64,000 bases of DNA from Deltaproteobacteria bacterium (GCA_015493475.1 WGDC01000001.1:12968-76967), one strand, 5' to 3'. Numbered from the stretch's first letter, positions 3,104 to 38,308 are shown. Notes: generated by a model from the sequence alone, not told the origin. Program-made: numbers and translations.

Positions 3104-3748
3104 TTGACCAGGTCCCTGTTTGATCAGGATACACTTGATCCGGCGCATGGGGCCTGGCACTTTGAACATATACTTCAGGATCAGGGCCTTTGGCCAGCAG
3201 CCGGCGTGGACGAAGTAGGAAGGGGCTGCATAGCCGGCCCAGTAGTGGCTGCGGCAGTAATACTGCCACATGATATCTCCACGCAGGGGGTGACGGATTC
3301 TAAAAAACTTACAGGCACCCGGCGTGAAGAGCTGTCGCAGTTGATAGAAAAGGTTGCCATTGACATTTCCATTGCCGAGGTAGGCCCCGAAAGGATTGAC
3401 AAGGTCAACATTCTCAGGGCAAGCCTTGAGGCCATGAAACTTGCTATAGAATCCCTGAAAACCCGTCCAAGGGCCGTTCTCATAGACGGAAACCAGCCGG
3501 TACCCGTTCAGATACCCCAAAAAAACATAATCAAGGGCGACAGCCGCTCATGCTCTATAGCCGCGGCCTCCATTGTTGCCAAGGTGTATAGAGACGGCCT
3601 TATGAAGGAATTTGGCCGCAGGTACCCCGTCTATCTCTTTGAAAAGCATAAGGGCTACGCCACAAGAGAGCACAGGGAACTGATAAAACGGTTCGGACCC
3701 TGCCCCATACACAGAAACAGCTTCAAGGGCGTATCGAAAGATGGCTGA
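3104..3748 (+). CDS. rnhB: ribonuclease HII
   Basis: AGVDEVGRGCIAGPVVAAAVIL...DSKKL...IDG...KGDSRSCSIAAASIVAKV...GYAT are RNase HII catalytic motifs. Confidence 0.93.
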   Translation: MTRSLFDQDTLDPAHGAWHFEHILQDQGLWPAAGVDEVGRGCIAGPVVAAAVILPHDISTQGVTDSKKLTGTRREELSQLIEKVAIDISIAEVGPERIDKVNILRASLEAMKLAIESLKTRPRAVLIDGNQPVPVQIPQKNIIKGDSRSCSIAAASIVAKVYRDGLMKEFGRRYPVYLFEKHKGYATREHRELIKRFGPCPIHRNSFKGVSKDG

Positions 3749-4112
3749 TCTCCTGCGCTTGAAAGGAAAGACCTTCGGTCACTCCTGCGAGGAACTGGCA
3801 GCCACATTCTTCAGACAACAGGGATATAACATCCTTGAAGTCAACTTCCGCGCAAGGTGTGGTGAGATAGACATAGTGGCTGAAAAAGACGGGTACATCG
3901 TCTTTATAGAGGTCAAGGCAAGGAAATCCACAAGGTACGGCCTCCCGCAGGAAGCGGTTACCCCGGCTAAACAGGCCGTTATCCGCAAAACAGCCACGGC
4001 TTTTCTGCAAAAAAGGAGCCTAATGGACAAGAAGGTCAGGTTCGACGTGCTCGCCATCACCTTTCCGAACAATGGCGGCCCGAGATTCAATCACATCCCC
4101 TTTGCCTTTTGA
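3741..4112 (+). CDS. YraN-family endonuclease (UPF0102)
   Basis: GEELAATFFRQQGYNILEVNFRARCGEIDIVAEKDGYIVFIEVKAR...RFDVLAI is the YraN pattern. It overlaps the rnhB end by 8 nt. Confidence 0.85.
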   Translation: MADLLRLKGKTFGHSCEELAATFFRQQGYNILEVNFRARCGEIDIVAEKDGYIVFIEVKARKSTRYGLPQEAVTPAKQAVIRKTATAFLQKRSLMDKKVRFDVLAITFPNNGGPRFNHIPFAF

Positions 4113-4191
4113 AAGGCCCTGGTCCTGCGCTTAACCCAAAAGAGCCCCATGCCTCCCCCAGTGGAAAGGATGTAAAAAAAATTTTCGCTTA

Positions 4192-4220
4192 TTGAAGTGG
4201 CGGAGTTTTAATAATATTAT
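4192..4220 (+). promoter_or_regulatory. candidate sigma70-type promoter upstream of the MarC-family gene
   Basis: TTGAAG (4192-4197), 17 nt spacer, TATTAT (4215-4220), in an AT-rich intergenic region. Confidence 0.35.
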
Positions 4221-4295
4221 TTGTGTATAATCGGGTTGTTCTGGCCGGCATGCCGCTGAAACACCTATGACCAACAGTCAACAGATGGAACATGT

Positions 4296-4925
4296 ATGGA
4301 ACCTACTGAAATATTAAAGAATTTTACCGGAATCCTGTCTATTGTAAACCCTATTGGCGCTATCCCCATCTTTATAGGCCTAACCTCAGACTGGACACAG
4401 AAGCAAAGAAACCGGACCGCCAATATCACGGCCCTTTCCACCAGTATTATACTCCTTATCTCGGCCTTTTTGGGAAACTATGTACTCAAGTTCTTTGGCA
4501 TACGCCTGTCTTCCTTCCAGGTAGGCGGCGGCATACTGCTCCTTCTTATCGCCATATCCATGCTGCACGCGAAGGTAAGCCATGCAAAACATACACCCCA
4601 GGAAGCCCAGGAGGCCGAAGACATGGAATCCATAGGGGTCGTTCCACTATCAATGCCCCTCCTGGCGGGTCCCGGCTCCATCAGCACCGTGATACTCTAC
4701 GCCCACTATGCACAGAAACTTCACGAAAAGGTGATCCTTGCAGGCATCATAATCTCCGTAGGCGCATTAGTATGGCTTTCGCTCCGCATGGCCGTGCCTA
4801 TCGGCTCAAGGCTTGGAGCTACGGGCATAAACATAGCCGTACGTATACTGGGACTCATCCTTGCAGCCATTTCTGTCGAATTCATGGCAGCCGGGCTAAA
4901 GAGTCTCTTTCCTGTCCTCAGGTAA
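4296..4925 (+). CDS. MarC-family (UPF0056) integral membrane protein
   Basis: 209 aa and polytopic. FTGILSIVNPIGAIPIFIGLT at the N-terminus is typical of MarC/UPF0056. Confidence 0.8.
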   Translation: MEPTEILKNFTGILSIVNPIGAIPIFIGLTSDWTQKQRNRTANITALSTSIILLISAFLGNYVLKFFGIRLSSFQVGGGILLLLIAISMLHAKVSHAKHTPQEAQEAEDMESIGVVPLSMPLLAGPGSISTVILYAHYAQKLHEKVILAGIIISVGALVWLSLRMAVPIGSRLGATGINIAVRILGLILAAISVEFMAAGLKSLFPVLR

Positions 4926-4932
4926 CTGACGC

Positions 4933-6006
4933 ATGATCTGTCGCCTCACAAGGGAAAAACTCTTTGGCATACTCTTCGAAGGCTTGCCCATAGGCTGTTT
5001 CTTAGTAAACAAGAAGTTTGAAATCATCGCCTTCAATAAATCTGCAGAAACACTGACGGGCTGGAAAAAGGAAGAGGTCATGGGGAAACCCTGTTCCGAG
5101 GTCATAAACAGCAACCTGTGTCATCAGTTTTGCCCCCTAAAGGAAGGAGCGCACACAAAAAAGAAATTCATTGCGAGGGAAGAAATCATAAAAGACCGGT
5201 TCGGAGAAGAGATCCCGGTCTGTTATTCAAGCTCTGCGGTATTTGACGAAAATGGCAATTTCGAAGCGGGCATAGAAATATTCAGGGAAAGGGGTGGTGA
5301 CGAGAGGCTTCAGACCCTCCGCAACCACATAATATCCATTTTCGCCCACGACATCAAAACCCCGTGCAGCGTCACCGGGGCCCTTATAAACAGGATTCTT
5401 TCCGGAAAAGCAGGGCCCATCACGGATCAGCAAAGGGAGTACCTGGAATTCATCATAAAGGAAAACAAACAGGTGGAGCTCCTGATCAACAACCTGTTGG
5501 AGCTTCTGCACATTGAAAGGGGTGGCAGCCCGGCGGAAAAAAGTCCAACCGACATCCACTGCTTTATCAAGGACATGGTTGGGGAAATGAGGCCCAAGGC
5601 AGAGGCCAACGGGATTAACATCGCATATGACATCGACAAACGCATCAACAGACCGGTGTTGATAGACAAAATCCAAATGAAAAGGGTGCTCCAGAACCTC
5701 ATTGACAATGCCATAAAATATTCAAGAAAAGGCGGCACCATCCATGTAAAGGCCGAGATACAGAACAACTGGCTCATCTTGAAGGTCCGGGACGAGGGTA
5801 TAGGGATTCCAAAGGATGACCTTCCTCATATATTCGAGTACTTTTTCAGAGCGAAGAATTCCCCCAAGAAGGCTGAGGGCACAGGCCTTGGACTTGCCTC
5901 GGCAAGGGCCATAGTGGAATCAAGCGGAGGCCGGATCTGGGCAAAAAGCAAGGAAGGCGTCGGAACCACCTTTTTCATACGCCTGCCCATAGAACTAGAC
6001 TCGTAA
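4933..6006 (+). CDS. PAS-domain sensor histidine kinase (no cognate response regulator adjacent)
   Basis: PAS-like N-terminus (NKSAETLTGWKKEEVMGKPC), H-box FAHDIKTP, N-box NLIDNAIKYS, G-box GTGLGLA. Confidence 0.85.
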   Translation: MICRLTREKLFGILFEGLPIGCFLVNKKFEIIAFNKSAETLTGWKKEEVMGKPCSEVINSNLCHQFCPLKEGAHTKKKFIAREEIIKDRFGEEIPVCYSSSAVFDENGNFEAGIEIFRERGGDERLQTLRNHIISIFAHDIKTPCSVTGALINRILSGKAGPITDQQREYLEFIIKENKQVELLINNLLELLHIERGGSPAEKSPTDIHCFIKDMVGEMRPKAEANGINIAYDIDKRINRPVLIDKIQMKRVLQNLIDNAIKYSRKGGTIHVKAEIQNNWLILKVRDEGIGIPKDDLPHIFEYFFRAKNSPKKAEGTGLGLASARAIVESSGGRIWAKSKEGVGTTFFIRLPIELDS

Positions 6007-6009
6007 ATC

Positions 6010-7551
6010 TTGTATTCCAAGCCAAGGGTGTCTGAAACATCCCCCAAAACGAGAATCGTGTTCACGGCGGCCCTGGAGGCAGAGTTGCCTTGCGGCTTCA
6101 TAAAACGTTGCGGCTGGCCCGTGGTAACAGCAAGAAAACTTGGAGAACGAGTTTTTCCCTCCATTGATACGTCGCCGGTTAACGACTCGGTGGTTTTCGT
6201 CATAACGGGAGTTGGAAGGAAGAGAAGCCAGGAGGCTGCCCTCGCCATAGCGAGACACCTCAAACCTCTTGCCGTGGTCAATCTTGGCGGCTGTGGGCTG
6301 AATCTACATACCAATGAAAAACCGGCCCTAGCCTCCATGTTTGTAGCTTCCAGCACCCGTATAGGGAGCCAGGTTCTTGACTGTCCAGTAAAACTCCCAT
6401 TTCCGCTTCCTCCCAATTTGCGTATGAAAGCCGTGGCAGTTCAGTCTGTAGAACGTCCGCTTTTAAGATATGACCCCTGCATCTTACCAGTGGTTGACAT
6501 GGAGGCGGGCTTTGAACACAGGATTTTCAGAAAACATTCCATACCCTTTTACTGTGTAAAGGTATCAGCGGACCTCTGCTCAAGCTCGAGCAGGCAACAA
6601 TTTGAGAACTGTCTTGAAGGGATACGCCGTTCCCTTGAAGGCCTCCTGTCCTTTCTTGATCCCTCCTCGCTGCCGGAAGACATATCTGTGGTTGTGCCTG
6701 TACATAACAGGCAGACTATGATGGAACGAGCCATCGCGTCCGTTGTGAACCAAAGCCACAAAGCCGCTGAAATAATCGTGGTTGATGACGCATCCACACC
6801 CATAGTAAGAGAAACCATGAACAGAGAAATGAGGCGGCATGTAAAGATAGTAACGCTTTCGGAAAGGGGAGGAGTGTCTGCTGCAAGGAATGCCGGCATT
6901 AGAAAGGCGTCATCGAAATGGATAGCACTTCTTGACTCTGACGATGAATGGACGAAGAAAAAACTCGAAAATCAACTCTCTTACCTGAGAAAAAGACCAT
7001 TTTTCGAAACGGTGCAATGCGAAGAGATATGGATCAGGAAGGGCAAAAGGGTCAATAGGTGCAGCCGTCACCGAAAAGAACAAGGCTGGATATGGAAAAA
7101 GTGCGTAGAAATGTGCGCTATAAGTCCCTCCGGCGTACTCATAAGGAAGGATATCTTCAACAGGATCGGTTATTTTCAAGAGGAATTTCCTGCCTGTGAA
7201 GACTATGAAATATGGCTAAGACTGAGCAGGCATATGCCGGTGGGATTAAATCCAGAACCGGACCTGATAAAATATGGGGGGCATGACGACCAGCTATCAA
7301 GGCGTTACCCGGCCATGGACAGGTTCAGGGTAGCGGCCCTTTTAAAAGCCCTTGAGGCAGAATCGGATCCTGCTTACAGGGATATAATAGTAAAAGACAT
7401 TAAGCGAAGACTGCTGATACTTTACAATGGCGCCAAAAAGAGAAACAAGACAGGTCCGGCATGGGCCTTCGAAGAGGTTCTATCCGAGGTCTCAAAAAAC
7501 AGGGCAGTATCATGGAAAGACTATCCCATCCTTCTGAAAAAATATTTCTAA
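6010..7551 (+). CDS. fusion protein: N-terminal PNP_UDP_1-type nucleosidase/phosphorylase-like domain + C-terminal family-2 glycosyltransferase
   Basis: N-terminal half: VVFVITGVGRKRSQEAALAIARHLKPLAVVNLGGCGL and VVDMEAGFEH...FYCVKVSADL (MtnN/MqnB/HpnG-type fold motifs). C-terminal half: VVVPVHNRQ...VVDDAST...ARNAGI...LLDSDDEW (GT2 DxD). TTG start 3 nt after the kinase stop. Confidence 0.7.
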   Translation: MYSKPRVSETSPKTRIVFTAALEAELPCGFIKRCGWPVVTARKLGERVFPSIDTSPVNDSVVFVITGVGRKRSQEAALAIARHLKPLAVVNLGGCGLNLHTNEKPALASMFVASSTRIGSQVLDCPVKLPFPLPPNLRMKAVAVQSVERPLLRYDPCILPVVDMEAGFEHRIFRKHSIPFYCVKVSADLCSSSSRQQFENCLEGIRRSLEGLLSFLDPSSLPEDISVVVPVHNRQTMMERAIASVVNQSHKAAEIIVVDDASTPIVRETMNREMRRHVKIVTLSERGGVSAARNAGIRKASSKWIALLDSDDEWTKKKLENQLSYLRKRPFFETVQCEEIWIRKGKRVNRCSRHRKEQGWIWKKCVEMCAISPSGVLIRKDIFNRIGYFQEEFPACEDYEIWLRLSRHMPVGLNPEPDLIKYGGHDDQLSRRYPAMDRFRVAALLKALEAESDPAYRDIIVKDIKRRLLILYNGAKKRNKTGPAWAFEEVLSEVSKNRAVSWKDYPILLKKYF

Positions 7552-8501
7552 TTGTCCCGGACCGGCTTGACCTTTCCCTCGATTTCTCGCAGATACTTGA
7601 GAAACTCGGCGTTGAGGACTCCTCCAACTTGATAAAAAGCCTTGACGAAAACTCCATACTCTCGCCCATCCTTACAGCCGGCTTCCAGGGCGGGGAGAAA
7701 CCATTACTGGTAATCGATGGATTCAAGCGTCTTAGATGGGCACGCGGCAGAGGGCTTGCCCGGCTACCCGTCCTTCGGACCGGGATCATGGACAAGGAAC
7801 GGCTAATCCTGTTTCTCCTTGCAAAATACTCAGGCGGCCTCAAGGGATGCGCAGCAAAGGCCCTTTTCCTTGACTACCTCGTCAGGGCAGGCTTCCATAG
7901 ATCCCTGCTTACCGGCATGGCAATGGACGCCCTCGGCCTTGAGAAACATGGAGGCCTCCTTGATAGGTACCTGCGTGTGGCAGAGCTTCCCGGAGAGATT
8001 CTCAGGTTTTGCCATGAAAAGGATTTTTCTCTGAAAAAGTGCCTGAACCTTACATACCAGCCAAGGCAACTACTTGAAAAAATAATTGAATCAAGGCGAA
8101 GGATATCCCTGTCCGCAAGCCTCCTGTTGGAACTTTGCGACAATATCACGGACATAATGAGACGTGACCAAATAGACACGCATGAATTTTTTCAGCGCCA
8201 GGACGTTAAGGAGGTACTATGTACCAGGATGGACATCGGCCAGAGAACCAGGCTCTTCAGACAGCTTGTAATAAGGCTGCGATTCCCTGTGTTGACCCGT
8301 CTTCAGGACGAAGTAGGCAGGGTCAGCAGAGCATATTTTCATGACAGTCCATTTTCTGTCAGGTGGGATGAAACACTTGAAAACAGGAAAATTACCCTTT
8401 CCGTCACGCTTCGCGACTTATCCGAGCTCTCGGAGTTGAAAGAGGCCCTGTCAAGCAGTGAAACCGAAGAGGGACTTAAAAGACTCCTTTCGTACTTTTG
8501 A
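7512..8501 (+). CDS. ParB/Srx-fold (ParB N-terminal-like) domain protein, divergent
   Basis: LIKSLDENSILSPILTA...PLLVIDGFKRLRWARGRGLARLPVL resembles the ParB box (GERRxRAA is here GFKRLRWA). The rest is helical. The ATG at 7512 overlaps the upstream gene end. Confidence 0.55.
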   Translation: MERLSHPSEKIFLIVPDRLDLSLDFSQILEKLGVEDSSNLIKSLDENSILSPILTAGFQGGEKPLLVIDGFKRLRWARGRGLARLPVLRTGIMDKERLILFLLAKYSGGLKGCAAKALFLDYLVRAGFHRSLLTGMAMDALGLEKHGGLLDRYLRVAELPGEILRFCHEKDFSLKKCLNLTYQPRQLLEKIIESRRRISLSASLLLELCDNITDIMRRDQIDTHEFFQRQDVKEVLCTRMDIGQRTRLFRQLVIRLRFPVLTRLQDEVGRVSRAYFHDSPFSVRWDETLENRKITLSVTLRDLSELSELKEALSSSETEEGLKRLLSYF

Positions 8502-8505
8502 AAAC

Positions 8506-9621
8506 ATGAAATTTCGCAGTATCACCATTCATCCTAAGGTCAGAGACACGGAAATAGCCAAGAGGCTTGGCGGCACAGCCGCCGTGGGGCCAGGTCCAGG
8601 GCTTTCAGACTACAGGCAGGGGAAACGTCATCTCTTTGCGACCCCAAAGCGCGGTGAGCTTTTTCATGTCTGTGCGTCTCTCGATCCACGCTACGTCTGC
8701 TGCAGCACCCATGTCGTCTCGCAGATAAGCAACTGCCCCTTCGAGTGTACTTACTGCTTCCTGCAAAATTACCTAACGGATACCACCCTGACCGTGGTGG
8801 CCGACACACGGGCCATAATCAGGGAAATCATGCAGAAGACCTCAGAGCAGCCCTGGAGGCTTTTCAGGATCGGGACATGGGAACTTGGTGATAGCCTTGC
8901 AGTTCCTCCCCTTAACGAGGCAGCCATAGGACTTGTACGGGAATTCCGGAACTTGGACAACTGCATTCTGAAACTCAGAACGAAGGGCAGCGCCGTGGAA
9001 CCACTGCTCGACGTCGACCACCAAGGTAAAACTGTAGTCTCCTGGACGGTGAATCCCCCGGAAATCATTCGCGGAGAGGAGATAGGCACCGCACCTTTGG
9101 AAGAAAGACTGCGCGCCATGGAACTTGTGTCGAGGGCGGGCTACCCGGTGGGACTCCATTTTGACCCCATGATCCTCTTTAAAGGCTGGGAAAAGGCGTA
9201 CAGGAAGCTGGTCCGTTCCATCTTTTCGGCCATAGGCCCGGAAAACTGCATCTGGATATCCATCGGAAGCCTAAGGTTCAACCCGGAAATGAAGAAAAAG
9301 ATCGAGAACAACTATCCTTTTTCGAGGATAACGGCTCAAGAGATGGTCCTTGGGGATGACAATAAGCTTCGCTATCTGCGTCCCGTCCGGGAAGAGATGT
9401 ACTCTTTTTTACTGCAATGTATAAAAGAGGTGGGCTGCGGGGAATGTTTTACATACCTTTGCATGGAAAGATGGAACGTGTGGGAAAAGGTATTCGGACG
9501 GTCTCCGTTTTCAATTGGCCACTTGGATTACCTCATGGCGAGGTCGGTCCACGAAAGATTCCCTGAAACAGCCAAAAAGGCCCCTGAAAAAAAACTGTAC
9601 CTTTCTCTGCGATATGGATGA
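8506..9621 (+). CDS. spore-photoproduct-lyase-family radical SAM protein (SplB-like)
   Basis: CPFECTYCFLQNY is a CxxxCxxC radical-SAM cluster in the SPL-type context (cf. C..C.YCYLQ). About 370 aa. The ATG at 8506 is 4 nt after the upstream stop. Confidence 0.75.
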   Translation: MKFRSITIHPKVRDTEIAKRLGGTAAVGPGPGLSDYRQGKRHLFATPKRGELFHVCASLDPRYVCCSTHVVSQISNCPFECTYCFLQNYLTDTTLTVVADTRAIIREIMQKTSEQPWRLFRIGTWELGDSLAVPPLNEAAIGLVREFRNLDNCILKLRTKGSAVEPLLDVDHQGKTVVSWTVNPPEIIRGEEIGTAPLEERLRAMELVSRAGYPVGLHFDPMILFKGWEKAYRKLVRSIFSAIGPENCIWISIGSLRFNPEMKKKIENNYPFSRITAQEMVLGDDNKLRYLRPVREEMYSFLLQCIKEVGCGECFTYLCMERWNVWEKVFGRSPFSIGHLDYLMARSVHERFPETAKKAPEKKLYLSLRYG

Positions 9622-9633
9622 AAATCCCGTATT

Positions 9634-10569
9634 CTAAAATAGGGGCCTTTTCCTGTTCCTGTGCCAGTTGAGTATGAGATTCCATGCCTCCTCGGCGCTG
9701 TCAGCAAAGGAAAATATGTTCAGGTCCCTTGCAGCGATACTCCCCTCCTCAACGAGGAAATCAAAATCGATCAGCCTGCTCCAATATCTCCTGCCTAGCA
9801 TTACAATGGGCATGGGTTCCTGCTTGCGGGTCTGTACAAGGGTCAATGTCTCAAAAAGTTCATCGAGAGTGCCAAAACCGCCGGGATAAACCACGAGGGC
9901 CTTTGCCCTGTTCAGGAAATGCAGCTTCCTCATTGCAAAATAATGGAACTGAAAACAAAGTCCCGGGGTGATGTAAGGATTGGGGTACTGTTCATGGGGA
10001 AGCTTGATGTTAAGGCCGATGGACTTTGCGCCAACGTCGTAGGCACCGCGGTTTGCCGCTTCCATGATACCGGGGCCTCCTCCTGTCATGAGAATAACCC
10101 TGCAATCCTCCGGACCTCTTCCGCTTTTGCCCACAAGGCGGCCAAACTGTCTCGCATCATCGTAATAGACGCTCTTTTCAACCATCTTCTCCGCCACCGA
10201 CAGCCTGCGAAGGAGACCATCAGATTCTCCATGGGACTCTATCTTCTTCTGGACCGCTTCGAGCTCCTTGAGGGCCGTGGCTTTCTCGAGAATCCTAGCA
10301 CTGCCAAAAACCACAATGGTGTGCTCTACGCCGAGCTCCTGAAGCCTGAGTTCCACCTTTAGATAGTCGAGTTGGAGCCTAATGCCCCGTGCCCTACGGG
10401 ACTTGATAAATTCCAGATCCTCCTCGGCCATGCGGTAGCTTGGGTCTTCCATTATCCTTTTTATAAGCTCCATGGCCTTGGGATCTTCTTCCCGGCGCTT
10501 TGGCTTCTGCCAGGGAAGCATGGTATCGTTTTGGCCCATGCCGGAATTCTGTTTCGTTTTTTTTGCCAT
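9634..10569 (-). CDS. LOG/TIGR00730-family Rossmann-fold nucleotide-binding protein (lysine-decarboxylase-like)
   Basis: VVFGSAR...GGGPGIMEAANRGA...PGGFGTLDELFE are LOG family motifs. Confidence 0.8.
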   Translation of the reverse strand: MAKKTKQNSGMGQNDTMLPWQKPKRREEDPKAMELIKRIMEDPSYRMAEEDLEFIKSRRARGIRLQLDYLKVELRLQELGVEHTIVVFGSARILEKATALKELEAVQKKIESHGESDGLLRRLSVAEKMVEKSVYYDDARQFGRLVGKSGRGPEDCRVILMTGGGPGIMEAANRGAYDVGAKSIGLNIKLPHEQYPNPYITPGLCFQFHYFAMRKLHFLNRAKALVVYPGGFGTLDELFETLTLVQTRKQEPMPIVMLGRRYWSRLIDFDFLVEEGSIAARDLNIFSFADSAEEAWNLILNWHRNRKRPLF

Positions 10570-10579
10570 GATTAACCTG

Positions 10580-11137
10580 TCAGTCCTTCTCCCCTTTTAT
10601 GTCGCGGGAAAGCTCCAATAGTTCTATGCCTGATTCTTTCAGCATCTCCAGCGACATGTCGTCCGGATAGCCTTCCTCATAATATATGCGCCTTATGCCT
10701 GCATTTATAAGCATCTTGGTACAGATGGAACAGGGAAGATTGGTACAGTAAAGTACCGAATCCACAACGGCTATACCATGATAGGCCGCCTGGATAAGGA
10801 CGTTCTGTTCAGCATGGAGGGCGCGGCAAAGCTCGTGCCTCTGACCTGACTTTATGCCGAGCTTCTCTCTTAGACATCCGATTTCAAGACAGTGTTTCAG
10901 ACCAGCCGGGGCCCCATTATAACCTGTACTAAGGACCCTCTTGTCCTTTACCAGCACCGCCCCAACCTTTCTCCTGAGACAGGTGGAACGCCCGGCGACA
11001 AGCCTTGCTATGGACATGAAGTACTCGTCCCAGCTTGGCCTACTGTCACGCCCGGCGCGCCTGTTACCAGTCACTTTCTCACTCGTTCTTCGTGCAATCT
11101 TCCAGGCTTTGCTCGTACCTTTTGAGCCGGGATTCAT
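10580..11137 (-). CDS. deoxycytidylate (dCMP) deaminase
   Basis: [20 protein letters not shown]...[10 protein letters not shown]...[13 protein letters not shown] are zinc-deaminase HAE/PCxxC motifs. The start is uncertain: the ATG at 11137 still overlaps the glyA 3' end, so the true start may be a downstream non-ATG codon. Confidence 0.85.
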
Positions 11138-30240: not shown

Positions 30241-33200
30241 CTACTGCCTGAGAACAGCAATGCGCCTTAGGTACTCTAAGGTCATAGAATCTGCCCCAGA
30301 ACCAAGAAAATCGTAAAGGGGACCCTGGAAAAGCAGCCTTCCACCACGCCTCCCTCCACCCGGACCAAGATCAATAATCCAGTCCGACCCCGCTATCATG
30401 GAGAGATTGTGCTCTACAACGACTACCGTGTTGCCGAGCCCGGCAAGCCTTGTCAGGCAAGCAGAAAGCCTTTGCACATCCTCCATGTGGAGGCCGACAC
30501 TCGGCTCATCGAGAAGGTACAGCCTTGCCTGGGTAACGGTCTTGGACAGCTCCTTTGCTATCTTGAGTCTCTGGGCCTCGCCTCCCGAAAGGGACGGGCT
30601 TGGCTGGCCAAGGCGCAGGTAGCATAGCCCGAGGTCTTTCATCACCATGAGTCCCCTCTTTATGGCAGGAACGGTGCCGAAAAATTCAAGGGCCTCGGAA
30701 ACGGTCATATCAAGAATCTGGCTTATGTCCCGTGATTTCCACCGTATGGACAGGACCTCTTGTCTGAATCTTTTGCCGAGGCAGACAGGACACTTGACAT
30801 AAACGTCTGGAAGTATGCCGAGTCTTTGCCTTAGCTGACCTTGGCCCCTGCATTCGGGACATGCCCCCTGTGTCGTGTTAAAGGAAAAGTGCGAGGGGCC
30901 AAACCCCCTTACCCGTGCGGCCGGCGTACATGAAAAAAGCTTGCGGATATAGGAAAATATCCCAATGAACGTGGCCGGACAGGACCTCGGCGTCCTGCCA
31001 ATAGGACCGTGGTCAACGTAAAGAGCACCACTTACCGCCTCGGCTCTTCTTATTCCTTTGATACATAAAACATCCCCTTCCACTGCCCCCTGTAACGCCT
31101 CCATGAGGCTGGTTTTCCCGGAGCCGGATACTCCGGTGAATACGGTTACCGCGCCAATGGGTATCATGGCGTCGATGGCCGAAAGGTTATGCCTGCTTAC
31201 ACCACGGAGCTCGAGAAAATCCGTGTCGGACCCAAGCCTCCTGCTTCTCTCAATGACGGCCTTTCCATGCCTTAATCCCCTTGCGGTCCTCGATTCGGGA
31301 TGTTTCAAAAGCCCCTCCACGTCGCCCGAGTAAATCACCCTCCCCCCCTGACTTCCTCCCCCGGGACCAAGATCCACCACGAAATCAGCATGGAGGATAG
31401 TCTCTTCATCATGCTCTACAACTATCACGCTGTTGCCCCTGCGTGACAGGTCCTTGAGAATATGGACAAGACGCCGGTTGTCAGAAGGATGCAGGCCTAT
31501 AGTCGGCTCATCAAGTACAACGGTAATACCCGTAAGACTCGATGCGCTTTGTGAGGCAAGGCTGACCCTCTGGGCCTCTCCACCTGAAAGGCTGTCCCCC
31601 GACCTGTCCAGGCCGAGATACCCGAGGCCCAGTTCAGACATCAGCCTGAGCCTCTCCATGACCTGGCCGGTGAGCATCATAAGCAGATCTTTCCTTTCCA
31701 CCTGGAACTTCTTCACAGAACGCCAGTCCTCAAGACGCCCCATAGCCTCGTCCACCTCCATCCTGAAAAACGACGCAATATCAAGGCCGTTTATTTGCCA
31801 GGACAGGGCATATTTGGAAAGCCTTGCCCCCATGCATACAGAACAGGCGTCTTCATTGCCATTCCTGCCAGTTCCGAGACATGCCGGGCATCTGCCCACC
31901 TTGCTATGAAAGGAAAAGAGAAGGGGATCCGGATCCTCCAAGGACACATGGCACTCGGGGCAGAAGTACCTGATGCTGAACCACCTCTTTCCAACACCGG
32001 GGAAGAGACAAAATACAGTACCCCGCCCAGCCCTGACAGCCGCAGACAGGACCTGTCTAAACTCCTTAACGGAGACGCCTTCTCTGAAAGGTCCCCAGAC
32101 CCAGGAGACATCGTGTTCCGTGTACATAGAGATAGACAGCTCCTGGCCACGTTGAAAGAGCCTGTCATCCACAAGCACGAAATCCGCCCCGGCAGCAAAC
32201 CCCATTTCAACCTCCCGCCGGTGCCTGCCTTTTCTGTGACGAACACGGGGCGCCCCGATGTAGAAGGCATCTGCGCCAAGAAGCCTCTCAATCCCCTTTT
32301 CTATCTGGTCCATGTTCGCATGGCCCATGGGCATGGAGCACTCGGGACAGACAGGACTCGAGCAATGGGCATAAAGGAGCCTCATGTAATGGGCCGTCTC
32401 CGATAGAGTCGCCACCGTTGACATGGGGCTTCCTCTGCAAGCCCTCTGTTCTATGGCAACCGATGGGCTTAGTCCCCTAACCTCGTCTGCGTCAACCCTT
32501 TCATGAAGCCTCACGAACTGCTTCATGTAGGAAGGGAGGCTTTCCATGTAGCGCCTCTGGGCTTCCTTATAAATGAGGTCAAATGCCATGGACGATTTAC
32601 CGGATCCGGAAACCCCAGTCACTACAACGAGCCTGTTCCTTGGTATCTTGATGTCTATGTTTTTGAGGTTATGATGCCTTGCCCCCTTTATCTCGATAAC
32701 ATTACCAGACTGCCCCCTGCCTTTTCTCTCCATCTTCCCTGCTTGGCACTGCCCGTCCCTTCCTGAGCCGCCGTATTCCCGAATGGCCCGGGCTGTTGGC
32801 GTATCCTCATTGAGAAGCCATTCAGGGCTACCCTGAAAGAGCAGGTAACCGCCATTATCTCCACCCCCTGGGCCAAGCTCAATAACCTGGTCGGATGAAA
32901 GAATGGTCGAGAGATCATGCTCCACCACCACCACGGTATGGCCGTGACGACAAAGGCCCCTTACCTGCCTTATAAGGCCCTGCACCTCGGTATGGTAAAG
33001 CCCCATGGTCGGTTCATCAAGAATGAACAGGCACCTGCCTTTCCCAGAAATGAGGTGCCTTGCTATCTTAAGCCTTTGGGAATCACCTGCGGAAAGGGTG
33101 TTAAGGGGCTGGCCGAGAAGCAGATGGCCAAGGCCGAGTTCAAGGGCAGGGCCAAGGATCTTTGCCACCGCCCTTTGGCTGCCAAGGGCACCCGCCACCT

Positions 33201-35475
33201 CGGAAAGGGTCATCTCAAGCCACTCGTTCATATTTTTACCCTTCAGCCTTATCTCAAGTGCCCTATCAGAAAACCTTCTTCCCTTACAGTCGGCGCAAGG
33301 CACCATGACATCGGGCAAAAACTGCATGTCAAGAAGCTCGTAACCCTGCCCGCCGCAGCTCTGGCACCTGCCTCCAACAACATTGAGAGAAAAATAGCCG
33401 GGCCTGAGCCCGAGGGATATCGCCTTCCGGGTTTTGGAAAAGAGCCTCCTAAGCGGATCAAGGATCTTGAGATAGGTTCCCGGACAACCTCGCGGGGTTC
33501 TCGAGGCAGGCTCCTGATCTATAAAGACCACAGAGTCAAATGGCTCGGGTATGATTATGGACTTAAACCTCCCGGGCTCGGAACAGGGCCGCCCCATCAT
33601 CCTTAAAAGCCCCCTGTAGATGCACTGCTCAACGAGGGTGGACTTTCCAGAGCCGGACACCCCGCAGACGCACGTCACCATCCCCATCGGGATTCGGCAC
33701 GTTATGTCTTTCAGGTTATTCTCGGTAAGCCCCCTGATCTCAAGAAAACTCGGGGAACCATCCATTGGCCGTCTCCCCTTGATAGCTACTGCATGAGGCG
33801 GCTCCAGCGTGTCTTGGGAAGGATGGCCCTCCGCAACCACGCGGCCTCCGTGCCTCCCGGACCCAGGACCCAGGTGGATAATCCTGTTTGCGCACCGGGC
33901 CATTAAGGGATCGTTCTCTGTCATCAGAACGGTATTGCCTGATTTCCTCAAGCCCTCAATTACTTCCCTTACGCCCTTAACGTCTGCGGGGTGAAGCCCA
34001 GAAGAAGGCTCATCTATACAATAAAGGGTCGCGGAAAGATTTGCGGATACGCCCTTTGCGATACAGAGCCGGGAAAGCTCCCCGCCCGAAAGGGTGCGCG
34101 AGCGCCTGTGAAGGGCAAGGTAGCCAAGGCCCGCCTGCCTTATTAAGGAAAGCCTCCTTTCAAGGTCTTGGAGCAGGGAACGGGAGGCCTCATCAAGACC
34201 CTCCCGTTCCCCGAGCCCCCTGCACCATTTAAGGGCGTCATGGACACTTAGCGCATAAAACCCGGCTATACTCAACCCTGAAAGCCTGTAGGACAGGGCC
34301 TCCTCGTTAAACCTAGCCCCCTTGCAGGAAGGACAAATATTGTATGCCCTGTATCTTGAAAGCAGAATTCGTATGTGGGCCTTGTATCTTTTTGATTCAA
34401 GCCGGCGAAAAATCTCCCTTACGCCGTACCACTCCTCCTTTCCAAAGAGGATGGCGTCTCTGTCCTGCTGGGAAAGCTCCCTCCAGGGCCTCGTGGCATC
34501 CATGCCCCACTTGCTACAGCAGGCGAGGAGAAACTCCTTTTCATCCTCCCAGTTTTCAAGGGGTCTTATTGCCCCTTCAATGACAGAGAGTGACTTGTCA
34601 GGAATCACTATGTCATAATCTATGTCCATTACCCTTCCGAAACCGCTACATGATGGGCACGCCCCCTCTACGGAATTGAACGAAAAAAGAAGCATTCCCG
34701 GAGGTTTCTTTTCGGTCCCGCACTCCGGACATACAGCCCCTTCGTGAAAGGCCCTTGTCTCCACCTTTCCGCCATCCGCGGGGAACACCGCGTACAGACT
34801 CCCGCCCGAAAGGCTGAAGGCGGTCTCAACCGCCTCCTTGACCCGCTGAATAGAAAGGGATTTAAGGGATAGTCTTTCAATAATCACGTAATGATTCTTG
34901 TGATCCGAAAGCCGCCGTACATCTACCTCGGACCCGTCCACCACACGGCCGTCCACAAGAATGCGCCTGTAGCCTTCCCCCACGAGGTCGTCGAGACGCT
35001 GAGCCCCTGCCTCTATACAGATGTAGCCGCAGGTGAAACCATTGCAGGCCGCCTCCTTGAAACAGTCAAACACGTCCTTTGGGCCGCACCGTCTTACCGG
35101 CACCCGGCAGCGTGTACAATAACCCGTGGCGTTTCTGAAAAAGAGCATCCTTGCCGGAAAGCTTACCTCGGAAAGAGTGGCCACTGTTGACCGGGAATTT
35201 CTCACCGGGTTGGACTGACCCACACCTATGGCAGCGGGAAGATTTTCCACCCGCCGTACCCTCGGCCTCGGTAGCCTTTCTAGAAACTGGCGCACATAGG
35301 GAGAAAAGGTCTCCATGAACTGTCTCTGGGCCTCACAGTAAATGGTGTCAAAGACAAGCGAGGACTTTCCTGAGCCGGAAGGACCGCAGAATGCGCAAAT
35401 GGAACCAGCCTCTATCTCAAGGTCGACGTCCTTCAGGTTGTGCTCCATGGCTCCGCTGATAATTAGGGCCTTCAT
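30241..35475 (-). CDS. tandem-duplicated UvrA-like ABC ATPase (two UvrA units, four nucleotide-binding domains, in one 1744-aa polypeptide)
   Basis: Walker A x4 ([36 protein letters not shown]). ABC signatures x4 ([36 protein letters not shown]). Walker B x4. UvrA zinc modules (CPECG...[15 protein letters not shown] and [20 protein letters not shown]). The second unit starts near 32700 ([15 protein letters not shown]). The ATG at 35475 ([17 protein letters not shown]) is preferred over the ORF-track start at 35721. Confidence 0.9.
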
Positions 35476-35614
35476 GGGAAAAGAAGATAAGACATGCTGG
35501 ATTTTCCTCAAGGCCCGGCAGGCGCGCAAGCGTTCGATGGCAGCTCCGAAACCTTTATGTAAAAGTGATTGCATGATAAGCTTACGTCTATTCCCGTCAA
35601 AAAGGAGAAAACTC

Positions 35615-38308
35615 ATGGGCATGACCGGCCTGTCGCATCTATTGTCGCCTTCAAGGATAGCAGTGTTCTCAAGTTCCCAGATTGACCAAAGATTTGAAAA
35701 AAGGCTCTTCCAGAACATCATCTCCTCCGGTTTCCGGGGGCCAATCTATCCCATCGACATAGAAAGGGAGGCGGTATGCGGGATCCCCGCCCACCGGACC
35801 ATAAAGGCCATAAAGAAGAGGCCGGACCTGGCGCTTGTCACAGGGTCACCGGACTTGGTACCGGGGGTCCTCGAAGAGTGCGGCAAGGCGGAAATACCTG
35901 CCGCCATCATATTTTCGATGGATTTCAGGCACAGGACTGCGGACAGTAAAAAGATCGCATCGAGGATAAAGGATATTTGCAAGGACTACAACATCCGGTG
36001 CATAGGCCCAAATTCCCTCGGAATCATAAGACCGGGCAATAACATAAATATCAGCGTGAGTCTCAAGGCGCCGCCAAGGGGAAAGGTGGCCTTCCTGTCC
36101 CAGAGTTCCACGCTTGCAGCCTCCATTCTCGACTATGCGGCGTCCAAGCACGTGGGGATGAGCACCTTCGTGTCCCTTGGGGCACAACTTGATGTCGACT
36201 TTTCAGACATCATCGACTTCCTGGCCATGGACCCGGAAACGAGGGGAATCATCCTCTACCTCGAATCCATAAAAAACGGCCGCAAATTCATCAGCGCAAG
36301 CCGCTCCTTTACCCGGACAAAGCCCATGGTGGTAATTAAGGGGGGCAGGTTTGAACAATCAAGACTCGTCTCCTTCAGCCGCATGGGCTCCCTTGCCGGC
36401 GAGGACATGGTTTACGATGCTGTGTTCAAAAGGGCGGGCATGGTCAGGGTGAAAGACGTGCTCGAGCTTTTCAACACCTCCGAGGCCCTTTCAAAACAGC
36501 CCGCTCCCAAGGGTAACCACCTCGCAATAGTCACCAACGCCGGAGGGCCGGCCGTTCTGGCGATAGATGTCCTCATAAAAAAGGGCGGGCACCTTGCCAC
36601 CCTGGAAAAGGAAACCGTTGACAGGATAAAAAAGGCCCTTCCTCCCACGGCCCCTGTTTCAAACCCTGTTGACTGCCTGTCTGACGCCTCGGCCTCGAGA
36701 TTTTCAGACGTGATAGACGCCCTTCTCCAGGATGATACCTCGGACGGGGTCCTCGTGATAGTGACGCCCCAGCCCTACACGGAACCTGGCGATACGGCCC
36801 AGACGCTTATAGGGCTTTCCCGCAGGCATCCCTACAAAACCATCCTTGCATGCTGGATGGGCAGTGAAGACATGGACCGGGCAAGGAAGATCCTTAACGA
36901 GAATGGGATACCCACCTTCGTAGCCCCGGAACAGGCGGTCAAGAGCTTCCTTTACATGTACGAATACGAGGCCAACAGGCAGATGCTGTCCCAGACACCT
37001 TCCAACATCCTCGTGGATTTTCATCCGGACAAGGAAAGGGCCCTTTCCATCTTCAAATCCGTTGCAAAGGACGGAAGGCTGTTCTTGCTTGAGCGGGAGA
37101 CTAAGCAGGTACTCGAGGCCTACGGCATCGAAACCACTCCCATGGCCCTGGCAAGGAGTCCGGAAGAGGCCCTCAAGATTGCGAGGAAAACTGGATTTCC
37201 CGTGGCTCTCAAGATAGAATCCCCGGACGTTCCCAACAAGAGCAAGGCGGGAGGGGTAAGACTGCACCTTTTGGAGGAGGATGTGAAAAAGGCGTTCCGG
37301 GAACTCAAGACCAACCTCAAGAAGTACATGCCTAATGCCGATTTTCACGGTTGCACTGTGGAACCTATGATACTTGGCATGGGGTACGAATTCGCAATGG
37401 GCGCCCAGAAAGACCCTACCTTCGGCTCGGTAATAGTCTTCGGGCTGGGGGGCCAGCTCCTCGAGGCGGAAAAGGACTACGCGGTAGGCCTCCCGCCGCT
37501 TAACCAGGCAGTTGCAAGGCGCCTTATGCAAGACACAAGGATATGCAAGTACTTATCGGAGGAACAGGACGGCCTCGAGATGATGGAAATCTTAGAAAAG
37601 GCACTGGTGCGTTTCTCCATACTCGTGGCAGACTTTTCGTTCATCAAGGAGATAGAAATCAACTCCTTTTTCCTTGAAAAGCAACGGGGTGTGTGCCTTG
37701 ACGGAAGGATCGTGCTCGAAGAAGAAGTACTCGAAGGTGTACGGGTTGGCCAGGGAAGTACCTGCCCGGAACACCTGGTAATATGCCCGTATCCCTGCCA
37801 GTACATAGACACCATGAAGCTGAAGGAGGGAACCCCTTACACCATCCGCCCCATCAAGCCGGAGGATGAACCCCTCATGGCTGAACTCTTTTCCACCTTC
37901 TCCGAGCAAACCATCATCAACAGATTCTTTCAGCTAAAGAAGAGCCTCACCCACGATGAATTGGCGAGATATTGCCAAGTGGATTATGATAGGGAAATCG
38001 CCCTCGTGGCGGTATTAGAATCCCAGGACAGGGAACGGATAATCGGCGTATGCAGGCTAACCATAATGCCTGACGGGGAAAACGCCGAGCTTGCAGTGGT
38101 AATAGGAGACCCATGGCAGGGACACGGCATCGGGAAGGCCCTCATGGCCAAGACCATTGAAGTGGCAAGGGAAAAGGGCCTGAAAAATATCTGGATGGAT
38201 GTTTTGAGAGACAACAACCCCATGAAAGGCCTCGCCAGGAAATTTGGCTTTAAGCTCGCGGAGTCCGAGGATCCGGATATCCTGCGCTTTGTCCTAGGGA
38301 ACCTTTGA
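35615..38308 (+). CDS. Pat-type protein acetyltransferase (ADP-forming acyl-CoA synthetase-like domains + C-terminal GNAT)
   Basis: AAGGAG RBS then ATG at 35615. LLSPSRIAVFSSS (CoA-binding start), succinyl-CoA-ligase-like and ATP-grasp regions, and a C-terminal GNAT (IGVCRL...VVIGDPWQGHGIGKALM). The ORF-track start at 35342 overlaps the divergent uvrA-like gene. Confidence 0.85.
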   Translation: MGMTGLSHLLSPSRIAVFSSSQIDQRFEKRLFQNIISSGFRGPIYPIDIEREAVCGIPAHRTIKAIKKRPDLALVTGSPDLVPGVLEECGKAEIPAAIIFSMDFRHRTADSKKIASRIKDICKDYNIRCIGPNSLGIIRPGNNINISVSLKAPPRGKVAFLSQSSTLAASILDYAASKHVGMSTFVSLGAQLDVDFSDIIDFLAMDPETRGIILYLESIKNGRKFISASRSFTRTKPMVVIKGGRFEQSRLVSFSRMGSLAGEDMVYDAVFKRAGMVRVKDVLELFNTSEALSKQPAPKGNHLAIVTNAGGPAVLAIDVLIKKGGHLATLEKETVDRIKKALPPTAPVSNPVDCLSDASASRFSDVIDALLQDDTSDGVLVIVTPQPYTEPGDTAQTLIGLSRRHPYKTILACWMGSEDMDRARKILNENGIPTFVAPEQAVKSFLYMYEYEANRQMLSQTPSNILVDFHPDKERALSIFKSVAKDGRLFLLERETKQVLEAYGIETTPMALARSPEEALKIARKTGFPVALKIESPDVPNKSKAGGVRLHLLEEDVKKAFRELKTNLKKYMPNADFHGCTVEPMILGMGYEFAMGAQKDPTFGSVIVFGLGGQLLEAEKDYAVGLPPLNQAVARRLMQDTRICKYLSEEQDGLEMMEILEKALVRFSILVADFSFIKEIEINSFFLEKQRGVCLDGRIVLEEEVLEGVRVGQGSTCPEHLVICPYPCQYIDTMKLKEGTPYTIRPIKPEDEPLMAELFSTFSEQTIINRFFQLKKSLTHDELARYCQVDYDREIALVAVLESQDRERIIGVCRLTIMPDGENAELAVVIGDPWQGHGIGKALMAKTIEVAREKGLKNIWMDVLRDNNPMKGLARKFGFKLAESEDPDILRFVLGNL

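Follow-up and report, generated by a model that had tools for sequence, protein, structure and literature searches.

Radical S-adenosylmethionine (SAM) enzymes of the spore photoproduct lyase (SPL) fold have two established roles only, spore photoproduct repair and one phage thymidine isomerization, and those with known substrates, SPL itself and phage M6 gp53, act on DNA (PMC8989533). Genes of COG1533 are SOS-regulated in non-sporeformers of several phyla (PMC8565304). In the hopanoid side-chain pathway, HpnH adds a 5'-deoxyadenosyl radical to an alkene, HpnG, a nucleosidase of the PNP fold, removes the adenine, the ribose is opened and reduced, and HpnI, a family 2 glycosyltransferase (GT2), glycosylates the reduced ribose chain (PMC13459092). 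Two pairs of a radical SAM enzyme and the PNP_UDP_1 nucleosidase that serves it are defined genetically, HpnH/HpnG and MqnE/MqnB, and in each of them the substrate is adenosylated (PMC13459092). DNA glycosyltransferases of the GT-A fold exist as well and co-occur with ParB-like genes in phages (10.1101/2023.12.21.572611). Here we analyze a locus of a Deltaproteobacteria bacterium at which a nucleosidase-GT2 fusion (gene 2), a ParB-like protein (gene 3) and an SPL-family radical SAM enzyme (gene 4) are encoded in a row, behind a histidine kinase gene (gene 1). It lies in a stretch of 64,000 nucleotides (nt) (GCA_015493475.1 WGDC01000001.1:12968-76967), called the window below, in which all positions are counted.

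Genes 2 to 4 (6010-9621) constitute a conserved, uncharacterized module, which is accompanied by an aldo-keto reductase gene in many genomes. We found no description, function or name for this gene combination in the literature searched.

A gene module conserved across phyla

The radical SAM family of gene 4 has 597 matches in a clustered protein database and 545 confirmed matches, from at least eight phyla, in a collection of one genome per species. The carriers belong to Desulfobacterota, Nitrospirota, Nitrospinota, Margulisbacteria, Gammaproteobacteria (including Beggiatoa relatives), Bdellovibrionota, Binatota, marine Actinomycetota and Deferribacteres. The 80 best of these matches are all in metagenome-assembled or single-amplified genomes. 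We examined the neighborhoods of 82 loci by profile searches and by unsupervised clustering of all open reading frames (ORFs) within 7 kb; the denominators that follow are the loci with enough flanking sequence. The ParB-like gene sits directly upstream of the radical SAM gene, on the same strand, at 62 of 70 loci, which span the first eight of the lineages just named. The GT2 fusion is found further upstream at 37 of 64 loci (33 with the nucleosidase domain), an aldo-keto reductase gene (PF00248) directly downstream at 25 of 60, and all four genes (fusion, ParB-like, radical SAM and reductase) occur together at 11 of 48. No other partner recurred across phyla in the 82 neighborhoods.

The order, orientation and tight spacing of the fusion, ParB-like and radical SAM genes, with gaps of a few nt or overlaps, are kept in relatives. 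A search begun from fusion homologues found the complete four-gene cluster again twice (L084 and L085), and several deep clades of a neighbor-joining tree built from the radical SAM proteins contain the four-gene pattern. A preliminary description of the window, made from its sequence alone, had staked its proposal on these genes being found together elsewhere. The neighborhood counts and the tree bear this out for genes 2, 3 and 4, which are co-conserved far beyond chance across phyla. The same description had taken genes 1 to 4 as the operon. The fusion, ParB-like and radical SAM unit stands; the kinase has to be removed from it, and the recurrent reductase partner is absent from the window, in which tblastn found no aldo-keto reductase homologue. 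The contexts of the module are of housekeeping type and vertically inherited, and no mobile-element genes recur near it.

Several lineages carry reduced or altered versions. At the Binatia loci (L080, L081 and L083; for example, L080 8360-11539), the ParB-like protein is reduced to its C-terminal domain of 182 to 197 residues, the GT2 lacks the nucleosidase domain, and the gene in the position of the aldo-keto reductase reads as flavin-reductase-like. A metagenome-assembled genome of Bdellovibrionales encodes a stand-alone nucleosidase of 264 residues (L037 8235-9029; E 3.5e-45 to the domain profile) immediately before the ParB-like gene; a GT2 gene was not detected at that locus. The radical SAM gene of some Thermodesulfovibrio loci has the reductase gene as its only adjacent partner. 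Because of these three variants, we define the universal core as the C-terminal domain of gene 3 plus the radical SAM enzyme; it is frequently supplemented by the DNA-binding part of the ParB-like protein, the nucleosidase, the GT2 and the reductase. We also considered whether the radical SAM genes without a ParB-like neighbor form a separate paralogue clade, and rejected this, as they are scattered inside the Nitrospirota clade.

Some genes border the module in limited sets of genomes. An SprT-like metalloprotease gene (PF10263) lies convergent just downstream at 15 loci, all from Nitrospirota (L024, L025, L034, L035, L038, L039, L043, L046, L051, L053-L056, L058 and L061; for example, L053 12173-12847, minus strand); it could be a link to DNA-protein crosslinks or simply inherited gene order. 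At one locus only, a gene of the Exo_endo_phos (EEP) family, with an AP-endonuclease-type fold, ends 19 nt before the fusion of a four-gene cluster (L085 5816-6982). At a gammaproteobacterial locus, a DUF1415 gene stands directly before the ParB-like gene, in the place of the GT2 fusion (L001 6445-6999).

Predicted activities of the three module proteins

Annotation with Pfam, profiles and structure models upheld the folds that the preliminary description had given to all four proteins, and the motifs it listed are all in the sequence: VITGVGRKRS, VVDMEAGFEH, VVDDAST, DSDDEW, DGFKRLRWA and, in gene 4, NCPFECTYCFLQNY.

The gene 4 product matches PF20903 (SPL) at 1.1e-24, and its family profile matches SPL structures at 8.7e-29 over about 250 residues. 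Scores against the SPL equivalog TIGR04070 (104.8 bits, cutoff 400) and its sister TIGR03886 (57.6 bits, cutoff 437) are far lower than the cutoffs. SPL residues were mapped by profile alignment, with their roles taken from the Geobacillus SPL structure (PMC3467042). The cluster-binding CX3CX2C motif is kept, as is Tyr96 within it. C77, C81, C84, K160 and R257 are invariant and align with SPL; K160 corresponds to Lys174 of SPL, which binds SAM, and R257 to Arg273, which binds SAM and phosphate. At other positions the family departs from SPL: the H-atom donor Cys140 is replaced by an invariant Glu126, the strictly conserved Tyr98, a proposed radical relay, by an invariant Phe85, and the thymine-binding Arg193 by Ser179, and the second thymine-binding residue, Glu268, falls in an alignment gap. 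Ser76, the position of the donor cysteine in Clostridium SPL, is occupied by an invariant Cys56. Seven cysteines are 99 to 100% conserved in 121 sequences, with C65, C66 and C319 at 100%.

The last ~90 residues of gene 4 do not align to SPL. No alignment to SPL was obtained for the C-terminal 122 residues, which hold a possible counterpart, R289-Y290, of Arg304-Tyr305 at the tip of the SPL beta-hairpin; R289-Y290 is invariant and its distance from R257/Arg273 fits (31 versus 32 residues), which is a lead only. Identification of gene 4 as a bona fide SPL was rejected on score and on the Cys140, Tyr98, Arg193 and Glu268 positions. The gene 4 family is a distinct, deeply conserved clade of the SPL family with a different active-site make-up. 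It appears to have kept the SPL scaffold and a protein H-atom donor, and to have lost thymine-dimer specificity and the SAM-regenerating route, in which case SAM would be used stoichiometrically. The extra cysteines may form a second metal center or a redox relay. The preliminary description had remarked on an SPL-like enzyme in a lineage that does not sporulate; this is so, and the clade occurs in mostly anaerobic lineages.

No Pfam or NCBIfam match was found for the gene 3 protein. Its AlphaFold model (mean predicted local distance difference test [pLDDT] score, 86.8) matches ParB, Noc, KorB and Spo0J in Foldseek (E 4e-6 to 1e-3, probability 1.0), in alignments of 190 to 240 columns that span the N-terminal domain and the helical DNA-binding domain; sulfiredoxin and the N-terminal domains of SerK and SbnI are weaker fold matches. 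PF02195 (ParB_N) is recorded for two homologues (L084 and L085). Foldseek thus recovers the ParB/Srx N-terminal domain followed by a helix-turn-helix (HTH), and gene 3, as modeled, is a true ParB homologue. The replacement of GERR by GFKR that had been pointed out in its nucleotide-binding box is real and reads DGFKRLRWA, with D69, G70, K72 and R73 invariant even at 25% identity. The canonical GERRxRA box for cytidine triphosphate (CTP) binding and hydrolysis is accordingly missing, its Glu being replaced by Phe. The invariant motifs of the family are DG.KR, FC..K..S.K and WD..LE, and the ParB-type HTH region is kept in most members.

The C-terminal domain of gene 3 is the part always kept beside the radical SAM gene. 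Modeled separately, it reached a pLDDT of 92 and had no match in the PDB (best E 0.5). The gene 3 family comprises 526 cluster representatives at E<=1e-10, nearly all of ~320 residues and without fusions. No ParA-like gene recurs near the module in the 82 neighborhoods.

In the gene 2 product, the GT2 assignment is clear: residues 226 to 331 match Glycos_transf_2 (PF00535) at 3.9e-29 (102.2 bits, cutoff 23.3), and the motifs VVDD, DSDD and CEDY, which include the DxD and ED catalytic regions, are at least 90% conserved in 115 sequences. Among named families, the domain scores best with envelope enzymes, TuaG (1.4e-26) and chondroitin synthase (6e-15). A conserved helical region follows the GT2 domain at the C-terminal end. 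The same fusion is present at locus L002, at 37% identity.

The N-terminal 212 residues, searched as a single sequence, gave weak matches to structures of methylthioadenosine/S-adenosylhomocysteine (MTA/SAH) nucleosidase (MTAN; E 0.2 to 1.3) and to HpnG (0.0045). A profile of 20 N-terminal domains matches MTA/SAH nucleosidase structures at 2.4e-13, and PF01048 is carried by many homologues. All 20 members match the HpnG model (TIGR03468; best, 3.9e-14), and the MTAN and futalosine hydrolase models come next; the domain stays below every curated cutoff, with 19.6 bits for that of the window against an HpnG cutoff of 187. E25, D163-M164-E165, K184 and D188 are invariant. The E. coli MTAN sequence used for the alignment agrees with the PDB fragments seen in the structure matches. 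In this alignment, D163-M164-E165 and K184...D188 align to M173-E174 and R193...D197, which contain the catalytic Glu174 and Asp197 (E. coli numbering), and E25, aligned by eye only, is at the expected position of Glu12. The N-terminal domain has, in sum, the fold and the catalytic Glu174/Asp197 equivalents of the MTA/SAH nucleosidase class. From the GxAG to the DME motif the domain is ~27 residues shorter than MTAN, in which this segment presumably builds the pocket for the 5' substituent. Given the PF01048 homologues, the MTAN profile match, the HpnG matches of all 20 members and the invariant catalytic residues, the domain very probably acts as a nucleosidase of the MTAN/HpnG/MqnB class and releases adenine.

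What the module might do

As a tentative best guess, which may well prove wrong, we propose that the module treats DNA in the way in which hopanoid side chains are made, by radical adenosylation, removal of adenine, reduction and glycosylation. In this scheme every recurrent activity finds a use. The ParB-like protein would bind DNA through its N-terminal domain and HTH, and its C-terminal domain would dock the radical SAM enzyme. At a flipped-out nucleotide, this enzyme would consume SAM stoichiometrically, since the SAM-binding residues of SPL are kept and the SAM-regenerating tyrosine is gone. Its most likely chemistry would be addition of the 5'-deoxyadenosyl radical to a base, with Cys56 quenching the product radical. 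The MTAN/HpnG-class domain could then strip adenine from the adenosyl adduct, the reductase, where present, would reduce the freed ribose aldehyde, and the fused GT2 domain would glycosylate the resulting polyol. Carried to its end, this would make the module the source of a chromosomal DNA hypermodification, in which a ParB-guided SPL-fold enzyme C-adenosylates a base and the adenosyl group is trimmed to a ribose-derived polyol and glycosylated. We consider the proposal in that specific form quite improbable.

A DNA or other nucleic acid substrate is suggested by analogy. DNA is favored because the partner is a ParB homologue, SPL and gp53 act on DNA, COG1533 genes are SOS-regulated, and phage GT-A glycosyltransferase genes lie near ParB-like genes. 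Isoelectric points (medians of 7.5 to 8.9) are uninformative on nucleic-acid binding. The preliminary description had assigned the nucleosidase to salvage of the radical SAM by-product; this is one reading only, and the enzyme set fits equally well an adenosyl group built into the product, as with HpnH, HpnG and HpnI.

Several observations speak against the hopanoid-like scheme on DNA. We know of no SPL-fold enzyme for which radical adenosylation has been shown, and gene 4 shares no more than the radical SAM core with HpnH and MqnE. Alternatively, the four extra cysteines might ligate an auxiliary Fe-S cluster, a sign of different chemistry. Binatia homologues have lost the ParB N-terminal domain and HTH and kept the C-terminal domain, from which it follows that the core can do without DNA binding by this protein. 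About half of the loci have no fusion or reductase gene nearby; the two may thus be accessories or belong to another process, and one fusion homologue stands alone beside a phosphoglucomutase (PGM/PMM) gene, without the other module genes. Genes for restriction, replication or clear repair functions show no consistent linkage to the module.

Some of the same evidence can be read as repair of DNA lesions, which comes close to the view of the preliminary description. The ParB-like protein would scan DNA and the SPL-like enzyme would reverse a radical or crosslink lesion not caused by UV, abstracting an H atom and donating one from Cys56, with SAM used stoichiometrically, and the nucleosidase would do no more than clear inhibitory 5'-deoxyadenosine. 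Retention of the SPL active-site scaffold and of the Clostridium-type cysteine together with loss of the SAM-regenerating Tyr (PMC3467042), the SOS regulation of COG1533 in several phyla (PMC8565304) and the vertically inherited housekeeping contexts are consistent with such a role, as are the SprT-like gene at the 15 Nitrospirota loci, the EEP-family gene upstream in L085 and the fact that the ParB-like/radical SAM pair alone is the most conserved unit. However, repair leaves no role for a GT2 fused to a nucleosidase or for the recurrent reductase. Arg193 and Glu268, by which SPL recognizes thymine, are not retained, the spore photoproduct lesion is not expected in such dark and anoxic habitats, and the SprT-like link is limited to one phylum. 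We regard repair as unlikely, though worth keeping in play. We put at a similarly low level the idea that the module tailors nucleotide sugars or glycans. Precedents for remodeling of nucleoside diphosphate (NDP) sugars are the DesII-type radical SAM enzymes and the NDP-hexose reductases of the aldo-keto reductase family. Here, the radical SAM enzyme and the reductase would remodel an NDP-sugar, the GT2 would transfer it to an envelope or soluble acceptor, the ParB/Srx protein would bind a nucleotide or act as a regulator, and the nucleosidase would remove 5'-deoxyadenosine. The envelope enzymes TuaG (1.4e-26) and chondroitin synthase (6e-15) among the GT2 matches, the PGM/PMM gene beside one fusion homologue, the nucleotide-binding capacity of the ParB/Srx fold with its weaker matches to the SerK and SbnI kinases, and the dispensability of the ParB N-terminal domain and HTH in Binatia argue for it. 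Yet no further genes of sugar-nucleotide pathways (nucleotidyltransferase, dehydratase, flippase or polymerase) recur in the 82 neighborhoods, no membrane segment was noticed in the GT2, SPL-fold enzymes of known substrate act on DNA, and most of the family retains the ParB-type HTH region.

Radical adenosylation might also act on a metabolite other than a nucleic acid (a lipid, quinone or cofactor precursor), which would then lose adenine, be reduced and be glycosylated, with the ParB-like protein as scaffold or regulator. Such a route would truly parallel the side-chain chemistry of hopanoids or futalosine. The enzyme set is that of HpnH, HpnG, a reductase and HpnI (PMC13459092), and the nucleosidase domain finds its most consistent match in HpnG. 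Nevertheless, no isoprenoid, hopanoid or menaquinone genes were noticed in a skim of the ORF N termini of the window, made without a domain search, or found recurring in the 82 neighborhoods; the radical SAM enzyme is of SPL type and not of HpnH or MqnE type, and its obligate partner is a ParB homologue. On this evidence the metabolite route is distinctly doubtful. As for the possibility that the genes are unrelated in function and adjacent by chance or through local operon packing, the kinase and MarC genes are indeed only local neighbors, but order, orientation and tight spacing of genes 2 to 4 are kept across at least eight phyla and were found from independent starting proteins, which makes chance adjacency of the module extremely improbable.

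Whatever its nature, the substrate of the hopanoid-like scheme or of its rivals should reveal new radical SAM chemistry. If it is DNA, environmentally dominant anaerobes would possess a new system for repairing or modifying it, and a ParB homologue would have a role outside segregation. If the hypermodification proposal is true, gene 4 would be the first adenosylating SPL-fold enzyme and its product the first DNA modification derived from the ribose of SAM, in hundreds of mostly uncultured species. The module is small, with three to four genes.

Genomic setting and relation to known systems

The features of the locus are collected in Table 1.

Table 1. Genes, domains and residues of the locus, with positions counted in the window
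Feature	Position	Strand	Basis
marC, MarC/NAAT-family membrane transporter gene	4296..4925	+	PF01914 MarC 2.6e-61, TIGR00427
Gene 1, cytoplasmic PAS histidine kinase	4933..6006	+	Pfam: PAS_9 2.6e-12, HisKA 6.9e-8, HATPase_c 1.2e-31
Gene 2, nucleosidase-GT2 fusion	6010..7551 (TTG start)	+	Pfam, family profile
Gene 2, predicted MTAN/HpnG-class adenosyl nucleosidase domain	about 6052-6645	+	family profile
Gene 2, GT2 (GT-A fold) glycosyltransferase domain	about 6676-7305	+	Glycos_transf_2
Gene 3, ParB-like protein, 329 residues	7512..8501	+	AlphaFold model, Foldseek
Gene 3, DGFKR replacing GERR in ParB/Srx N-terminal domain	7716-7730	+	box II alignment
Gene 3, ParB-type HTH/central helical domain (predicted)	to about 8096	+	model
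Gene 3, C-terminal domain without PDB match (residues 196-329; predicted)	8097-8498	+	model
Gene 4, SPL-family radical SAM enzyme, 371 residues	8506..9621	+	PF20903, SPL-structure profile
Gene 4, Cys56	8671-8673	+	invariant, aligns with SPL Ser76
Gene 4, Cys65-Cys66	8698-8703	+	extra invariant
Gene 4, CX3CX2C cluster motif	8734-8757	+	sequence
Gene 4, Phe85	8758-8760	+	at SPL Tyr98 position
Gene 4, Glu126	8881-8883	+	at SPL Cys140 position
Gene 4, Cys319	9460-9462	+	extra invariant

The spacing of +3, -40 and +4 nt reported earlier for genes 1 to 4 agrees with the junction sequences, which consist of a 3-nt gap, a 40-nt overlap and a 4-nt gap. The ORFs and their tight packing are therefore as described, but their number is not: the marC stop lies 7 nt ahead of the kinase gene in the same direction, so that the packed, codirectional cluster holds five genes and not four, and transcription probably begins with marC. 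Independent annotation of identical contigs yields the same 329- and 371-residue products for genes 3 and 4. In public calls, gene 2 starts at codon 26, which gives 488 residues. This start would cut the segment RIVFTAALEAELP, a strand that holds the invariant Glu25 and is conserved among 115 homologues, and an upstream start at TTG 6010 or GTG 6028 is for this reason more likely.

A promoter scan placed a promoter-like site at 4192-4220, upstream of marC; promoter and terminator matches in the region are no commoner than in shuffled sequence, as expected by chance. A search of 4000-9700 for parS-like palindromes gave only two weak ones, 72% complementary, and no convincing palindrome. Rfam models found no RNA element at E<=1 within 3500-10800, and in eight related loci, where a riboswitch was sought as a clue to the ligand, no RNA element other than tRNAs reached the gathering score.

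The kinase is present in the relatives L004, L007, L010 and L018 and missing from L005 and L008, which keep the order marC, fusion, ParB-like, radical SAM. Because only some of the closest Desulfobacterota relatives carry it and others with the same order do not, it falls outside the conserved unit, and we rejected it as a member of the system, contrary to the preliminary description. The marC gene likewise precedes the module only in the closest relatives; both genes are local, lineage-specific neighbors outside the conserved module. No response regulator gene was found within the cluster. The PAS domain of the kinase contains a Cys/His-rich stretch, CSEVINSNLCHQFC (residues 54 to 67; 5092-5133), which could be a metal, Fe-S or redox-sensing site.

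Downstream, 12 nt past the stop of the radical SAM gene, lies a convergent gene of the LOG/TIGR00730 family (9634-10569, minus strand), which resembles nucleotide 5'-monophosphate nucleosidases and has an N-terminal extension of ~130 residues; a dCMP (deoxycytidine monophosphate) deaminase gene comes next. The LOG-like neighbor is kept in the nine closest relatives only. Elsewhere, the window contains a very large ORF of 1826 residues (30241-35721, minus strand), and the remainder, judged from ORF N termini only, resembles genes for fatty-acid synthesis, electron transfer flavoprotein/acyl coenzyme A dehydrogenase and housekeeping functions.

None of the PADLOC-DB 2.0 defense models matched any of the four proteins (fusion, ParB-like protein, radical SAM enzyme and reductase). 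A defense system was rejected on this ground, on the housekeeping contexts and on the lack of recurring mobile-element genes. Phage origin was rejected as well, PHROG matches being weak or generic (glycosyltransferase families). A scan of 2.9 million viral contigs found only an SPL-like relative of 25% identity (PF20903 1.1e-13), on two IMG/VR contigs of 151 kb and 320 kb (L088 7854-12191 and L089). This gene adjoins a second radical SAM gene, close to a protein of the HTH-Mom family (PF25680 9.5e-30), possibly forming a phage DNA-modification cluster unrelated to the module. The earlier statement that the locus fits no known system holds: the proteins fall outside SPL, canonical ParB and HpnG as defined for each, with no defense model or published description to match.

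Phage M6 gp53 resembles gene 4 in being an SPL-fold radical SAM enzyme that modifies rather than repairs DNA (PMC8989533), and phage DNA-sugar pathways likewise bring together GT-A glycosyltransferases and ParB-like genes (10.1101/2023.12.21.572611). Unlike phage hypermodification systems, the module is chromosomal, in a housekeeping context, and lacks enzymes forming 5-hydroxymethyldeoxyuridine or 5-hydroxymethylcytosine, kinases and pyridoxal phosphate enzymes. With MtnN/Pfs and MqnB, its nucleosidase domain shares the fold and the catalytic Glu174/Asp197 equivalents; it differs in the stretch from GxAG to DME, ~27 residues shorter, in its fusion to GT2 and in scoring below all curated cutoffs. 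The hopanoid pathway of HpnH, HpnG, a reduction step and HpnI is similar in that a radical SAM enzyme, an adenosyl nucleosidase of PNP_UDP_1 fold, an NAD(P)H-type reductase and a GT2 are encoded together (PMC13459092). In contrast, the radical SAM enzyme of the module is of SPL type, its nucleosidase is far below the HpnG cutoff and fused to the GT2, and its core partner is a ParB homologue predicted to bind DNA. No squalene-hopene cyclase (shc) or other hpn gene was noticed in the window on inspection of ORF N termini only.

Gene 3 shares with the CTP-dependent clamps ParB, Noc and KorB the fold of the N-terminal and helical domains, the G..R core of box II and an 'L-P-x-E-v-l ... S-x-K' segment. 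It differs from them in having GFKR for GERR, with loss of the Glu, in the absence of detectable QPR and ENxxR motifs and of a ParA partner, in its 135-residue C-terminal domain, which replaces the dimerization domain, and in the coupling of its gene to an enzyme gene. Gene 4 is homologous to SPL (SplB; TIGR04070, PF20903; 4FHC/4FHD), with which it shares the CX3CX2C motif with its Tyr, the equivalents of the SAM-binding Lys174 and Arg273, and an invariant Cys at the H-atom donor position of Clostridium SPL (PMC3467042). It is set apart by Glu in place of Cys140, Phe in place of Tyr98, Ser in place of Arg193, the lack of Glu268, three further invariant Cys, ~90 unaligned C-terminal residues, an obligate ParB-like partner and hosts that do not sporulate and are mostly anaerobic. 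The single folds are thus known ones; what is new is their combination in one gene module, a partner derived from ParB that carries a domain without PDB match, and the active-site composition of the radical SAM clade.

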